Shown: positions 57,398 through 63,754, counted from the first letter of the stretch. The stretch: DNA of 64,000 nt from Akkermansiaceae bacterium (GCA_031389115.1 JANMSI010000135.1:18758-82757); one strand, 5' to 3'. A program made the numbers and translations. Notes: generated by a model from the sequence alone, not told the origin.

Positions 57398-57524
57398 TGC
57401 AGAGTGCATGTCATTTTCATGCAAATCCCCATTCCTTCGATGACAGGGGCAGCTTCGGTTTCCGCGCAGGTCATTTCCAGTCAGTGACTCAGCACGCGTG
57501 ATCCACATTGGCCGATATCTTGCA
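57398..57524 (+). promoter_or_regulatory. Sigma-54 promoter (57508-57524) with upstream TGCA-N3-TGCA site (57398-57408)
   Basis: TTGGCCGATATCTTGCA is GG-N10-GC; TGCAGAGTGCA lies about 110 bp upstream. Confidence 0.72.
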
Positions 57525-57550
57525 AACGATGACATTAACCCACCACACTC

Positions 57551-57718
57551 ATGCTTAACTGGACCATCACTTTTTCAATACTCGCGCTGATTGCCGGCGT
57601 ATTTGCATTTACCCGGCTTGCCGGAACCGCCGCTGGCATCTCGCAGACACTTTTCGCGCTGTTTCTCGGGCTGATGATCGTCTCGATTTTCAACGAGGAA
57701 CGTCGGCGGAGGTTGTAG
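57551..57718 (+). CDS. DUF1328 (YtjA/UPF0391) small membrane protein, 55 aa, not in the ORF track
   Basis: Hand translation MLNWTITFSILALIAGVFAFTRLAGTAAGISQTLFALFLGLMIVSIFNEERRRRL*. Confidence 0.85.
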   Translation: MLNWTITFSILALIAGVFAFTRLAGTAAGISQTLFALFLGLMIVSIFNEERRRRL

Positions 57719-58529
57719 CGTTGGAAACATCACCCCAGCCGTTCGAACCCTTGGCAAACGACCAGGCGCCAGCTTCGACAAACACGCTGGATTGATAAAC
57801 ATGGTGCACCGCCTCGATGCGATCTTCCTTCAGCCGAATCTCGTGAAATCCCTGAGGCTCACCTTGCAAGCGGGTTGAGCAAACCGTGGGAGCCTGGGAA
57901 ATAATGGTTTTCCAGCTCCCGCTGAGGCCGGTCGCACGGATTTGAGACCGATGAAAATGCCCGCACATTACCAGATCGACCTGGGCCTCCTCGAGGACTT
58001 GCATCAGCTCCATTAACGGCCGGACGACGGCTCTGCCGGGTATTTGCAACGCCAGCAGCGGGTGATGGAGCACCAAAATTCGGCAATGTCCCGCTGGCCC
58101 GTCCTGAAATTTCTGCTTCATTCTCGCGAGCTGCCGCCGGGACAGTCGGCCCTCGGACCAATCCGAATGGAAGCCAAACGGCCGTGAACTGTTCACGCTC
58201 ACCACGTGGACGCCGGAAGCGACCAGCTCGGGTTCAAGCTCCCCGCCGAAGGTTTCCTGAAACCGTCCGAAGGAGTGGAAAAAGCGGTCAAACGGTTGAT
58301 TGATCAGCGGGATGTCGTGGTTGCCGGGGATGAGCACACGCGGTTCCGGCAACTGGTCGAAAAATTCCTTGGCGGCCTTCAACTCGCCCCGCCGCGCCCG
58401 CATGGTGAGGTCGCCGCTGAGAATCGTGAGCTGCGGCTCCATCGCTGCGGCGCGGTTTAGAAATGCGGCAGCCACGGTCGGATCTGAGGCTCCAAAGTGG
58501 GGATCGGATAAATGAAGAATGCGAGTCAT
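57690..58529 (-). CDS. Calcineurin-like metallophosphoesterase
   Basis: HLSDPHFG, SGDLT, PGNHD, LHHP and GHFH motifs. Confidence 0.92.
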   Translation of the reverse strand: MTRILHLSDPHFGASDPTVAAAFLNRAAAMEPQLTILSGDLTMRARRGELKAAKEFFDQLPEPRVLIPGNHDIPLINQPFDRFFHSFGRFQETFGGELEPELVASGVHVVSVNSSRPFGFHSDWSEGRLSRRQLARMKQKFQDGPAGHCRILVLHHPLLALQIPGRAVVRPLMELMQVLEEAQVDLVMCGHFHRSQIRATGLSGSWKTIISQAPTVCSTRLQGEPQGFHEIRLKEDRIEAVHHVYQSSVFVEAGAWSFAKGSNGWGDVSNATTSADVPR

Positions 58530-59464
58530 CAGCGGTCCGGTGGAATTTCGGTGAGGATGTCCGGGCTTGTCAGGACTTTAAGGTGCGCGGGTAAAATGCG
58601 CAGCTTGATGGGGAAGCGTAGGCGGAGGATTTCCCCATCCAGCATGGCATTGCAACTTTTCCGCCGCGATGCGCGCAGCGTCATGTGGCTGGCCGCTACC
58701 AGTTGTAAACCGGGATTCTGTTCGTGGCGGCCCAGCGCGTAATCGAAGATTCCCCGCAGCGCCTCGGAGGGGTGGCGATGCGTGCCGATGTAAGCGGTGA
58801 GCTTGCCGGAAGCGAAATCCGTGCGAGCGGGAATGAGGCCGGCGCTGTCCTTGTAGCGTCCGGGGACGAACGCGGAAAACTTAGTGCGGGCCTTCCCGGT
58901 GCCGCCGTCACCCTCCCAGGAAAGCGCCAGCGGACGCGCGTTCATGAAGGTGCGCCGCAGCCCGGTGAGGAGCTTGATGGACTTCTTCCACCAACGCCCG
59001 CCGTGATCGCGCTTTTCGAAAATATTCGAGAACTCCGGGTAAAATCCAAGGATGGTCGTACACAGGCACGCGTGACCCGCCACATCCAGCACATCGATGG
59101 AAATCACCTCCGCCGTCGTGAGGAAGCGTGCGGCATCTTGAATTTCCAGCGGCACACCCAAATCCCGAGCGGCTAGGTTGAACGTGCCCATCGGCAGGAT
59201 GCCCAAGGCGATCCCGGTGCCTCCGAGGTGGCGGGCTGCGGCGGAAACCGTGCCGTCTCCGCCGCCGACGATGAGGGTGTCCGGTGCCTTGGCGATGGCT
59301 CGCTCCAAGGTCTCGTCGATTTCCCCCGGCTCGATCAGCGAGGATGAAATTTCATGGCCCGCTTCTTGAAAAATCGCTTCCACCGAGCGGCGGACTTCAT
59401 CCGCCTGGAGGCCCCGATGCGTTCCTCCCGATGCGCGATTCATCAGCAAAATGCAGCGGCTCAT
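58529..59464 (-). CDS. Diacylglycerol-kinase-family (YegS-like) lipid kinase
   Basis: N.ASGG, VGGGDGTV, ILPMGTFNLAA, LDGE. Confidence 0.9.
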   Translation of the reverse strand: MSRCILLMNRASGGTHRGLQADEVRRSVEAIFQEAGHEISSSLIEPGEIDETLERAIAKAPDTLIVGGGDGTVSAAARHLGGTGIALGILPMGTFNLAARDLGVPLEIQDAARFLTTAEVISIDVLDVAGHACLCTTILGFYPEFSNIFEKRDHGGRWWKKSIKLLTGLRRTFMNARPLALSWEGDGGTGKARTKFSAFVPGRYKDSAGLIPARTDFASGKLTAYIGTHRHPSEALRGIFDYALGRHEQNPGLQLVAASHMTLRASRRKSCNAMLDGEILRLRFPIKLRILPAHLKVLTSPDILTEIPPDR

Positions 59465-61919: not shown

Positions 61920-63290
61920 TCAATCGATACCAAATCGCTTCCGTTTGCGGTAGAGGGTGGCCTTGTCGATGCCGAGGACCGAAGCCGCATCGTGGAGCGA
62001 GGGTGCCCAGCCGAGCACTTTCGTGAGATGGGCCTGCTCGATTTCATCCAGGCTGTGCTCGCCTCCGATTCCTAGATTGCCCGGGTCTGGAGCGCTTCCT
62101 GCAACCGTGGGCGTGGGGCGCGGGAGGTCTTCCGCTTCTACCGTCGATCCACGGGCCAGGATGGTGGCCCGCTCGATCGCATTGCGAAGTTCCCGCAGAT
62201 TTCCGGGCCAGGGATGGCGCATGAGGGCGCTGCGTCCGCTGTCGCTGAAGCCTTCGATTTTACGCCCGAGCTGGCCGGCGAAGAAGTCGAGGTAGTCCTT
62301 CGCGAAACGCGCAAGATCGGCCGAGCGGTCCCGCAGCGGCGGGACGGTCACGCTGATGACGTTCAGACGGTAGTATAAATCCTCGCGGAAATGCCCCTCG
62401 CTGATGCACGTCTTCAGGTCGCGGTTCGTGGCGGCGATGACGCGCACGTTGGACTCGCGGACCTTGTTTTCGCCAAGCCGTTCGTATTCCCTCTCCTGCA
62501 ACAGCCGCAGCAGTTTCGGTTGAATCTCCATCGGCAGTTCGCCGATCTCGTCAAGGAACAAGGTGCCCCCGTCCGCCGCGTGGATTTTGCCCCACGTGTC
62601 CTTGATGGCTCCGGTGAACGAACCTTTCATGTGGCCGAAAAGGGCGCTTTCCAGCAGCTCCTTCGAGAGACTGGGACAGCTTACCGTCACGAATGGCTTG
62701 TCCCGCAAATGGCTCCGGTCGTGGATTTCCCGTGCGATCACGCTTTTTCCGGTGCCGCTCTCCCCGAGAATCAGAATCGAGGCATTCGTCGCCGCGGCGC
62801 GAAACAGGATATCGAATTCTTCCCGGGTTTTGGCGTCCTCAGACGAGAACCGGAGCGGTGGCGATGCGTGGCGGACCTCGCTCTTCAGCTCCTGGACCGT
62901 CTCTTTCAAGCGCACCACTTCGCCCTGAGTCCTCAGGGCTTTCTGAGCCTTGATCAAAATAGCGCGCAGTTGATCGGGCGTGAAGGGCTTCTCCAAATAG
63001 TCGAATGCCCCGAGCTGGGTCGCTTTGACAGCGGTAGGAATCGAGGCGTGGGCGGTGAAAATAGTGACCAATTGCTGCGGCTTGAGCGCCACAATTTTTT
63101 GTAGAATTTCCAGGCCGTCCTCGTCTCCCAAGCGGAGATCTAGAAACACCAGATCGAAGTTTTCCTCCTTGATCCTGCGTAGCGCAAGGCTGCCGTCCTC
63201 AGCCGTTTCCACATAATGACCCTCGCTTTCCAATGCCAGCGACGTGGTCAACCGAATCGACTTTTCGTCGTCAACAATGAGAATATCCAT
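61920..63290 (-). CDS. Sigma-54-dependent response regulator (NtrC family, AlgB-like)
   Basis: FLDLRLG receiver, GESGTGKS, GSFTGA loop, LFLDEIGE, WPGNLREL, C-terminal HTH. Confidence 0.94.
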   Translation of the reverse strand: MDILIVDDEKSIRLTTSLALESEGHYVETAEDGSLALRRIKEENFDLVFLDLRLGDEDGLEILQKIVALKPQQLVTIFTAHASIPTAVKATQLGAFDYLEKPFTPDQLRAILIKAQKALRTQGEVVRLKETVQELKSEVRHASPPLRFSSEDAKTREEFDILFRAAATNASILILGESGTGKSVIAREIHDRSHLRDKPFVTVSCPSLSKELLESALFGHMKGSFTGAIKDTWGKIHAADGGTLFLDEIGELPMEIQPKLLRLLQEREYERLGENKVRESNVRVIAATNRDLKTCISEGHFREDLYYRLNVISVTVPPLRDRSADLARFAKDYLDFFAGQLGRKIEGFSDSGRSALMRHPWPGNLRELRNAIERATILARGSTVEAEDLPRPTPTVAGSAPDPGNLGIGGEHSLDEIEQAHLTKVLGWAPSLHDAASVLGIDKATLYRKRKRFGID

Positions 63291-63415
63291 GCAATTTTTC
63301 GAAGTGGGATCTACGCCTTCTTACCATTCGCCGTACCGCCGGCTGTTGAATAGGCAAGGAATTCAACGCCAGTGACTTGGGTGGCGATTTGCACAACCTG
63401 GGATCATGCCCGTCG

Positions 63416-63551
63416 TGCAGGATGGTGTGATGCTCAGATTGGTCGTGCAAGATGCAATATGAATGCCTCGGGTTTGCTGCCGGATGGCAGGGTCATAGCG
63501 GTTTATTTTGAAAGAGTTGTAGCTATTCCAAATTCTGGCGCAGGACTTGCG
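63416..63551 (+). promoter_or_regulatory. Sigma-54 promoter (63535-63551) with upstream TGCA-N3-TGCA site (63446-63456)
   Basis: CTGGCGCAGGACTTGCG is GG-N10-GC; TGCAAGATGCA lies about 90 bp upstream; gtcgtgca(g/a)gatg is repeated at 63412 and 63442. Confidence 0.75.
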
Positions 63552-63565
63552 AAACGGGCCTCACC

Positions 63566-63754
63566 ATGAACCCAATCCTCATCGCTAAGACGAATTGCCA
63601 GAACACCAGCCCGTTTGTCCGACTCTTCATGATCGCCACCGGGGCGGCCCTCCTCCTCGCGGCCGGAGCCACTTCATCGTGCAGCACCGCCCGCGGCTTC
63701 GGACAGGACGTCGAGAGAACCGGCGACAAGATTCAAAACGCGGCGAACAACTGA
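63566..63754 (+). CDS. Entericidin EcnA/B-family small lipoprotein (start could be 63629)
   Basis: ...ATSSCSTARGFGQDVERTGDKIQNAA matches the entericidin C.T..G.G.D pattern. Confidence 0.85.
   Translation: MNPILIAKTNCQNTSPFVRLFMIATGAALLLAAGATSSCSTARGFGQDVERTGDKIQNAANN

Follow-up and report, generated by a model that had tools for sequence, protein, structure and literature searches.

The 64,000-nucleotide stretch of DNA analyzed here (the window) corresponds to positions 18758-82757 of contig C75 in the 4.25-Mb draft genome (59.7% G+C) of an Akkermansiaceae bacterium, and coordinates given without a contig name are positions in this stretch. Between 57398 and 63754, the window carries a minus-strand operon of five genes whose stop and start codons overlap, flanked on both sides by plus-strand single genes that encode a DUF1328 protein and an entericidin. 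One gene of the operon encodes a sigma-54 enhancer-binding response regulator (the activator), and each flanking gene is preceded by a sigma-54-type -24/-12 promoter with an exact copy of the dyad TGCA-N3-TGCA further upstream. The sequence elements, their enrichment in the genome, their conservation among relatives and their co-occurrence with activator orthologues argue that the activator, the dyad and the promoters quite likely form one activator-site-promoter system. The features of the locus are as follows.

57398-57408, no strand: exact dyad TGCAGAGTGCA (palindrome ATGCA-GAG-TGCAT), predicted activator site upstream of the DUF1328 promoter (site A)
57419-57426, no strand: partial second site ATGCAAAT, 22 bp downstream of site A, read from the sequence
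57509-57524, plus strand: sigma-54-type -24/-12 promoter of DUF1328, TGGCCGATATCTTGCA; predicted start ∼57535, leader ∼16 nt
57551-57718, plus strand: DUF1328 (YtjA-like) small membrane protein, 55 aa, predicted regulon target (Pfam PF07043, E = 4e-9)
57690-58529, minus strand: calcineurin-like metallophosphoesterase, 279 aa, last operon gene (Pfam PF00149)
58529-59464, minus strand: DAGK_cat (YegS/MamU-like) lipid kinase, 311 aa (Pfam PF00781)
59461-60102, minus strand: receiver-only response regulator, 213 aa, with a ∼85-aa uncharacterised C-terminal tail (Pfam PF00072)
60083-61900, minus strand: sensor histidine kinase, 605 aa, with HAMP, PAS, HisKA and HATPase domains (Pfam)
61920-63290, minus strand: the activator, 456 aa, with receiver (REC), AAA+ and C-terminal helix-turn-helix (HTH) domains (Pfam PF00072, PF00158, PF25601, weak PF02954)
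63416-63426, no strand: distal putative activator site TGCAGGATGGT, weaker than the main dyad (2 mismatches) and 30 bp upstream of it
63446-63456, no strand: exact dyad TGCAAGATGCA, predicted main activator site for the entericidin promoter, lying in the spacer between the entericidin and activator genes
63500-63523, no strand: A+T-rich block ggtttattttgaaagagttgtagc between this site and the entericidin promoter
63536-63551, plus strand: sigma-54-type -24/-12 promoter of entericidin, TGGCGCAGGACTTGCG; predicted start ∼63562, leader ∼4 nt
63566-63754, plus strand: entericidin-family lipoprotein, 62 aa, predicted regulon target (Pfam PF08085)

The genes, the -24/-12 promoters and the dyads are located where a preliminary description of this DNA had placed them, with the dyads starting 111 bp (DUF1328) and 90 bp (entericidin) upstream of the promoter start. 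Both TGGCCGATATCTTGCA and TGGCGCAGGACTTGCG satisfy GG-N10-GC as well as the longer form TGGC-N7-TTGC. The upstream regions of the two genes contain no sigma-70 consensus promoter, and searches with Rfam families returned zero matches within 56500-64000. The A+T-rich block ggtttattttgaaagagttgtagc is a possible bending or IHF-like site. Two additional candidates were discarded. A -24/-12 match facing the activator gene (∼63453-63468, minus strand) was judged spurious, as it coincides in part with the dyad and lacks conservation, and TGGCCATTCCGCTGCC, facing lutA (57315-57330, minus strand), is likewise not kept in relatives.

The entericidin homologue begins with a conserved 21-residue N-terminal extension (63566-63628; MNPILIxKTNC...) ahead of the signal-peptide core, and its ATG lies only 15 nt after the TGC of the promoter. 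The extension is coding, since the third codon positions vary most (0.36, compared with 0.21 and 0.13). As the predicted transcription start lies ∼4 nt before this ATG, the mRNA is predicted to be nearly leaderless.

The activator has the domains expected of the NtrC family. Its receiver domain (PF00072, E = 4.6e-29, residues 3-112) carries the motif DL[VI]FLDLRL with the phospho-acceptor aspartate, which is found in 42 of 50 orthologues. The AAA+ sigma-54 interaction domain (PF00158, E = 3.7e-65) contains the contact loop GSFTGA, a one-residue variant. The C-terminal HTH segment LGIDKATLYRKRKRFG is nearly invariant across orthologues, which fits an unchanged DNA site across these lineages, and the full-length AtoC, NtrX and PEP-CTERM regulator models align through to the last residues of the protein. 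Among the best 25 NCBIfam matches, every named equivalog model scores below its cut-off (in bits, score/cut-off: AtoC 363/714, PEP-CTERM regulator 359/503, NtrC 358/559, LuxO 319/800, ZraR 314/760), and no AlgB model is present. The nearest structures in a search of the PDB are generic relatives of NtrC1, LuxO and NtrX.

The adjacent kinase has two predicted transmembrane segments (by eye) that flank a ∼160-aa periplasmic region without a family match, followed by the HAMP domain. An NtrC-family response regulator adjoining a membrane kinase with HAMP and PAS domains is the general architecture of AlgB/KinB of Pseudomonas, and the preliminary description had accordingly called the pair AlgB/KinB-like. 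Because no named equivalog is reached, the label holds as a statement of architecture only. The best family models (AtoC, PEP-CTERM regulator, NtrC) all fall below cut-off, and the kinase partner is not conserved with the activator but changes between lineages. The lipid kinase, in turn, scores 145 bits against the NCBIfam MamU model, whose cut-off is 400.

The genome encodes sigma-54 (rpoN) and four full sigma-54 activators only, namely the activator of the window and three others. The exact dyad TGCA-N3-TGCA occurs 21 times in the whole 4.25-Mb genome, two of these copies lying inside the 6-kb stretch described above. Intergenic DNA, which makes up 11% of the genome by crude gene calls, holds 13 of the 21. 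Other palindromic-tetramer dyads served as controls for the pairing with promoters. An outward-facing TGG-N9-TGC at a distance of 60-170 bp accompanies 7 of the 21 dyads compared with ∼8% of the control dyads (binomial P = 0.0013), and the strict form TGGC-N7-TTGC accompanies 4 of the 21, where ∼0.2 are expected (P = 3e-5). The enrichment also holds when the promoters are taken as the starting point: among 104 strong intergenic sigma-54-like promoters, 8 are accompanied by an exact dyad between -180 and -50, compared with 0 in a control window further upstream. Genome-wide, the distances from dyad to promoter start range from 78 to 156 bp. Scanning the genome for the dyad paired with a sigma-54-type promoter thus revealed an enriched pairing and a dispersed predicted regulon.

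The intergenic exact dyads that were left uncounted sit in other contexts. The copy on contig C171 lies in a tRNA, the copy on C56 is part of an iterated repeat upstream of an arsC-like gene, and those on C71 and C96 have no promoter at a plausible distance. The repeats on C56 (20300-20520) are ∼30-bp units, aTCGGAGAGCAnATATngt with TGCATTATGCA and TGCAATATGCG, upstream of a gene for an arsC-like low-molecular-weight phosphatase; no sigma-54 promoter is found at C56:20300-20520. The TGCA tetramer itself is under-represented genome-wide, with 10568 copies observed and ∼15380 expected from base composition.

An exact dyad with an outward sigma-54-type promoter is present at eight places in the genome, including those of DUF1328 and entericidin. 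The remaining predicted members with exact dyads, followed by those with one-mismatch dyads and good promoters, are listed below by contig.

C6: DUF3309 protein; exact dyad and promoter
C51: outer-membrane beta-barrel protein; exact dyad and promoter
C60: secreted 191-aa protein without a family; exact dyad and promoter
C68: DUF892 (YciE/F-like) protein; exact dyad and promoter
C185: Lys/Glu-rich lipoprotein; exact dyad and promoter
C149: GlsB/YeaQ-type (Transgly_assoc) protein, with a divergent BrkB/YihY gene; exact dyad and promoter
C148: CsbD; one-mismatch dyad and good promoter
C131: large-subunit (KatE-type) catalase; two one-mismatch sites 20 bp apart and good promoter
C117 and C68: two DUF2383 proteins; one-mismatch dyads and good promoters
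C63: DUF6799 protein, with a divergent gene for a paralogue of the C60 protein; one-mismatch dyad and good promoter
C86: 98-aa protein, family not known; one-mismatch dyad and good promoter

The members with one-mismatch dyads are less certain because 848 such sites occur in the genome. CsbD was considered as a conserved core member and dropped, as its site is kept only in the closest relative. In genomes or gene copies without the dyad, another shared motif, GGGTTAYACCCCAT, lies ∼60-90 nt before csbD (loci L153, L157 and L160 in genomes G004, G010 and G027), and points to a second, unrelated control of CsbD. A sigma-70-family gene (C124:17205-18065) was also tried as a target that would extend the system into a sigma cascade, and was rejected. 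The promoter of this gene, GGCAC-N5-TTGCT, is kept across the genus irrespective of the presence of the activator, and no conservation is seen for the one-mismatch dyad nearby. The gene encodes a highly conserved protein of 286 aa with regions 1.2-4, and the promoter lies ∼140 nt upstream (related loci L162-L179), an arrangement that suggests a cascade from sigma-54 to a sigma-70-family factor under another activator.

The hallmark stress-protein families in the predicted regulon of this genome are DUF1328, entericidin, DUF3309, DUF892, Transgly_assoc, CsbD, DUF2383 and catalase, joined in relatives by DUF2267, BON, lipocalin and Gly-zipper. DUF892/YciEF, KatE and CsbD belong to RpoS, SigB or EcfG regulons in other bacteria. 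The families regulated by RpoS include yciE/F (DUF892) and katE and, with counterparts behind the motif in relatives, osmY (BON), blc (lipocalin) and osmB-like lipoproteins, and the predicted gene set also overlaps families under EcfG control in alphaproteobacteria. Judged by its gene families, many of them without known function, the predicted target set resembles a general-stress regulon. The small open reading frames under tight sigma-S control in Salmonella include ecnB and ytjA (DUF1328) (PMC5437024), and the comparison with RpoS drawn in the preliminary description is borne out to this extent, in gene content. Its phrase 'substituting for RpoS' is best taken as a functional analogy.

Orthologues of the kinase identify ∼55 related loci (50-79% identity) in assemblies of Luteolibacter, Haloferula and further Akkermansiaceae or Verrucomicrobiales, which puts the source of the window in the Verrucomicrobiota. 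The conserved core of these loci consists of the divergent entericidin, the activator, the kinase and the receiver-only regulator, which follows the kinase in nearly all of them. The single five-gene operon proposed earlier is present in the window, and only part of it is general: the lipid kinase and the phosphoesterase are accessory genes found in a subset of the orthologous loci.

The spacer between entericidin and the activator gene was footprinted in the 36 loci in which the two genes diverge. The -24/-12 element of entericidin is kept in 34 of these loci and the exact dyad, next to the activator gene, in 31, and 23 of 30 pairs of dyad and promoter are separated by 89-90 bp. Within the dyad, the central N3 varies across the 36 loci, as does the surrounding DNA. 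In relatives, a second site CGTGCAaaaTGCc with 1-2 mismatches lies 30 bp, or about three helical turns, upstream of the main dyad, and its counterpart in the window is TGCAGGATGGT at 63416. An A+T-rich block like tcaaaatgaatggcttgc occurs at the same position in related loci. The DUF1328 promoter (TGGC-N8-TGC) is found ∼47 nt before the ATG in most related loci, even where DUF1328 is located away from the operon. In related loci, an exact or near-exact dyad precedes the start codon of DUF1328 by ∼157 bp, with a half-site (ATGCAGAT or TGCAAATT) 21-22 bp downstream of the dyad. At locus L056, from a metagenome-assembled genome of the Chthoniobacterales, the cassette (activator 59% identical) adjoins DUF1328, and the upstream repeat is a longer palindrome, GCACGATTT-N9-AAATCGTGC, instead of TGCA-N3-TGCA; the site may therefore differ in the Chthoniobacterales.

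The distribution of the pattern across genomes links the dyad to this activator. Two pattern searches for the dyad, a gap of 65-126 bp and TGGC-N8-TGC in 31 related genomes gave 59 matches, compared with 6 for the reversed-pattern control. Many of the matches precede genes for DUF892, DUF1328, DUF3309, entericidin, DUF2383, DUF2267, BON, lipocalin, Gly-zipper lipoprotein and DUF6515 proteins; DUF1328 genes lie behind dyad-plus-promoter pairs in genomes G002, G008 and G021, and further matches, by eye, precede glutathione-peroxidase-like, aquaporin-like and trehalose- or glycogen-enzyme-like genes. Orthologues of the activator (at least 56% identity, E ≤ 1e-153) are separated from paralogues (at most 45%) by a clean gap. 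An orthologue is encoded in 14 of the 31 genomes, each of which shows the pattern, with 51 matches altogether. Among the 17 genomes that lack an orthologue, the matches add up to 8, several of them inside coding repeats, and 13 of the 17 have zero (Fisher P = 1.2e-5 for presence of the activator and presence of the pattern). The kinase orthologue is found in only 5 of the 14 activator-bearing relatives, and the others pair the activator with a shorter, different kinase.

In a sample of the phylum comprising 121 genomes, activator orthologues are present in 16, which include two other classes. Genomes G040 and G043, from another class, have a pattern match directly beside the activator orthologue. 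In the small genomes (1.9-3.2 Mb) of a genus of the same family, g13, which is probably Akkermansia, no activator orthologue was found, a pattern that fits loss of the activator in host-associated lineages. Taken with the genome-wide regulon and with sites kept in 29-34 of the 36 orthologous loci, the phylogenetic profile of the 31 genomes supports the earlier proposal that the local NtrC-family activator would drive a sigma-54 stress-type regulon via TGCA-N3-TGCA.

The closest known counterpart of the dyad is the LuxO box of Vibrio, TTGCAW3TGCAA, a 13-bp palindrome found as one or two sites ∼89-120 bp upstream of the sigma-54-dependent qrr promoters, one of the LuxO targets adjoining the activator gene (PMC11443567). 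The sites described here share both the core TGCA-N3-TGCA and the placement of the LuxO box, and the system therefore resembles LuxO/qrr at the level of DNA. By analogy, the LuxO box shows that dyads of this kind are genuine activator sites for NtrC-family proteins. The likeness stops at the protein, which is not LuxO: the alignment to the LuxO model is confined to residues 6-397 and stops short of the DNA-binding domain. Furthermore, the predicted targets are protein-coding genes rather than Qrr small RNAs, the central triplet admits bases other than A/T, and CG/T takes the place of TT in the flank. Input would come from the directly adjacent membrane kinase, and the cassette, with no search made elsewhere, contains no LuxU-type relay gene.

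Comparison with other stress systems reveals further likenesses and differences. The overlap with RpoS of Escherichia coli and Salmonella lies in gene content, whereas control here is predicted to act via sigma-54 and a distant ATP-dependent activator, not a sigma-70-family stress sigma factor; the genes would therefore be tightly off without a signal. ZraSR-ZraP and PspF-PspA share the placement of an activator beside the divergent sigma-54 promoter of a small envelope-stress protein, with the enhancer in the shared spacer. They differ in that the predicted regulon here is dispersed and much broader (8-14 units) and has another binding motif, and the ZraR model falls below its cut-off. In the Rrp2-RpoN-RpoS pathway of Borrelia, too, a sigma-54 activator stands at the top of a programme for stress or adaptation. 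Rrp2 is not known to use a DNA-binding domain and works via a second sigma factor, whereas the stress genes here bear sigma-54 promoters themselves. A literature search found no paper describing such a sigma-54 stress regulon in Verrucomicrobiota, and in a 2025 survey of sigma-54 regulons (PMC12316311) the phylum comes up only in connection with motility, ABC transporters and rpoN autoregulation.

Based on these features, we infer a course of events that runs from the signal through DNA binding and sigma-54-dependent transcription to a physiological role in stress. The adjacent membrane kinase would sense a signal, probably envelope- or stress-related, and phosphorylate the receiver domain of the activator at the aspartate in DLVFLDLRL. 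The phosphorylated activator would assemble on tandem copies of a site whose core is (C)GTGCA-N3-TGCA, located ∼80-155 bp ahead of the -24/-12 promoters, and contact the sigma-54 holoenzyme at the -24/-12 element by DNA looping, in which the A+T-rich block may help. Hydrolysis of ATP by the activator would then open the sigma-54 closed complex. In the window, the predicted result is that the single-gene units of DUF1328 and entericidin are switched on; genome-wide, the same pairing of site and promoter would govern ∼8-14 units of stress genes for small membrane proteins, lipoproteins and ferritin-like proteins. The receiver-only regulator may act as a phosphate sink or modulator. Such a mechanism is canonical, and it is the content of the regulon that is new.

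How broad the response is bears on its name. That this system is the master general stress response of the lineage is a tentative conclusion. The same mechanism could serve a narrow envelope, osmotic or desiccation response, as in ZraSR-ZraP and PspF-PspA, and not general stress. Most core targets are small membrane, lipoprotein or periplasmic proteins (DUF1328, entericidin, DUF3309, GlsB, the outer-membrane barrel), as would be expected of an envelope pathway, and the BON, Gly-zipper and lipocalin proteins behind the motif in relatives, the periplasmic sensor region of the kinase and the two membrane-lipid enzymes in the operon of the window agree with it. Set against these are the cytoplasmic ferritin-like DUF892 and DUF2383 proteins and also DUF2267 behind the motif, a glutathione-peroxidase-like gene in one relative (by eye), the catalase with its weaker sites, and a gene set that mirrors whole RpoS or EcfG regulons instead of one envelope pathway. 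On balance, the narrow response is unlikely. The dyad could also be the site of another sigma-54 activator, its position beside the operon being a coincidence, and the genome does encode three further full activators. These cannot account for the distribution of the pattern, because they are found in both groups of genomes: their orthologues occur in pattern-free genomes, and the pattern tracks the orthologue group of the window activator. The dyad, moreover, adjoins the activator gene in 31 of 36 loci and also lies beside distant orthologues in another class, so an origin with another activator is very improbable.

It is scarcely more credible that the dyad binds a repressor or nucleoid protein, or belongs to a sigma-70 promoter, with the -24/-12 matches unused; indeed, we rate this slightly lower still. 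The deficit of TGCA in the genome indicates that some other constraint acts on the tetramer. However, the fixed 89-90 bp spacing to a conserved GG-N10-GC, the tandem sites, the lack of a sigma-70 consensus promoter before either gene and the same layout as in LuxO/qrr all argue against this reading. Both motifs are short and degenerate, as a chance co-occurrence without function would need, yet that reading is contradicted by the enrichment statistics, the reversed-pattern controls (59 vs 6), the conservation in 36 loci and the phylogenetic profile, and can practically be dismissed.

Several observations nevertheless weigh against a sigma-54 general stress system run by this activator. Several of its targets depend on one-mismatch dyads, which are common in the genome (848), and membership beyond the core is lineage-specific, with the CsbD sites kept in one close relative only. 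The contact loop of the activator is GSFTGA and not the canonical GAFTGA, though it is kept in 49 of 50 orthologues, and the match to Pfam HTH_8 (PF02954) reaches 18 bits, below the cut-off of 22. At the scale of the phylum, the strict pattern is only weakly enriched (47 matches compared with 14 for the control), and most genomes of family f12 that carry a ∼55%-identity orthologue have zero matches. Lastly, the label 'stress' is based on gene content alone.

Two conserved blocks in the vicinity are separate from the predicted sites. Block ggctaaatatccgggccgaaaggacaatggagaatgt at 57333-57369, between lutA and the DUF1328 dyad, is strongly conserved among related loci as GGCTA-N..-GGAAAGGACAATGG-GAAT; it may serve lutABC as a promoter or operator. 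Block cttaccattcgccgtaccgcc at 63320-63340, ∼30-50 nt before the start codon of the activator on the opposite strand, is kept in nearly all orthologous loci. It does not fit a standard -24/-12 element and may be the operon's own promoter or a leader element.

The control of general stress genes is unknown ground in most phyla beyond the Proteobacteria and Firmicutes, and many of the hallmark members (DUF1328, entericidin, CsbD, DUF892, DUF3309) are functionally uncharacterized. With its defined activator, 13-bp site and fixed promoter geometry, the system offers a direct experimental handle and makes the regulon readable from sequence in uncultured Verrucomicrobiota. The prediction is testable since cultured relatives carry the cassette, namely Luteolibacter pohnpeiensis KCTC 22041, Luteolibacter marinus NBU1238, Luteolibacter sp. 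Populi and Haloferula luteola YC6886. The combination of a LuxO-type box with a protein whose DNA-binding domain is not covered by the LuxO model is also a useful case for the study of site choice by NtrC-family helix-turn-helix domains. We put forward, with some reserve, that in free-living Verrucomicrobiota the core general stress response may depend on sigma-54 together with a single dedicated activator acting at a LuxO-type TGCA-N3-TGCA box, with kinases that are interchangeable between lineages, and that the system may have been lost in host-associated Akkermansia-like genomes. The predicted control would be switch-like, needing ATP and a signal, unlike control by sigma-factor competition. 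If the proposal is true, such a response would represent a fourth architecture of bacterial general stress control, beside RpoS, SigB and PhyR-EcfG.

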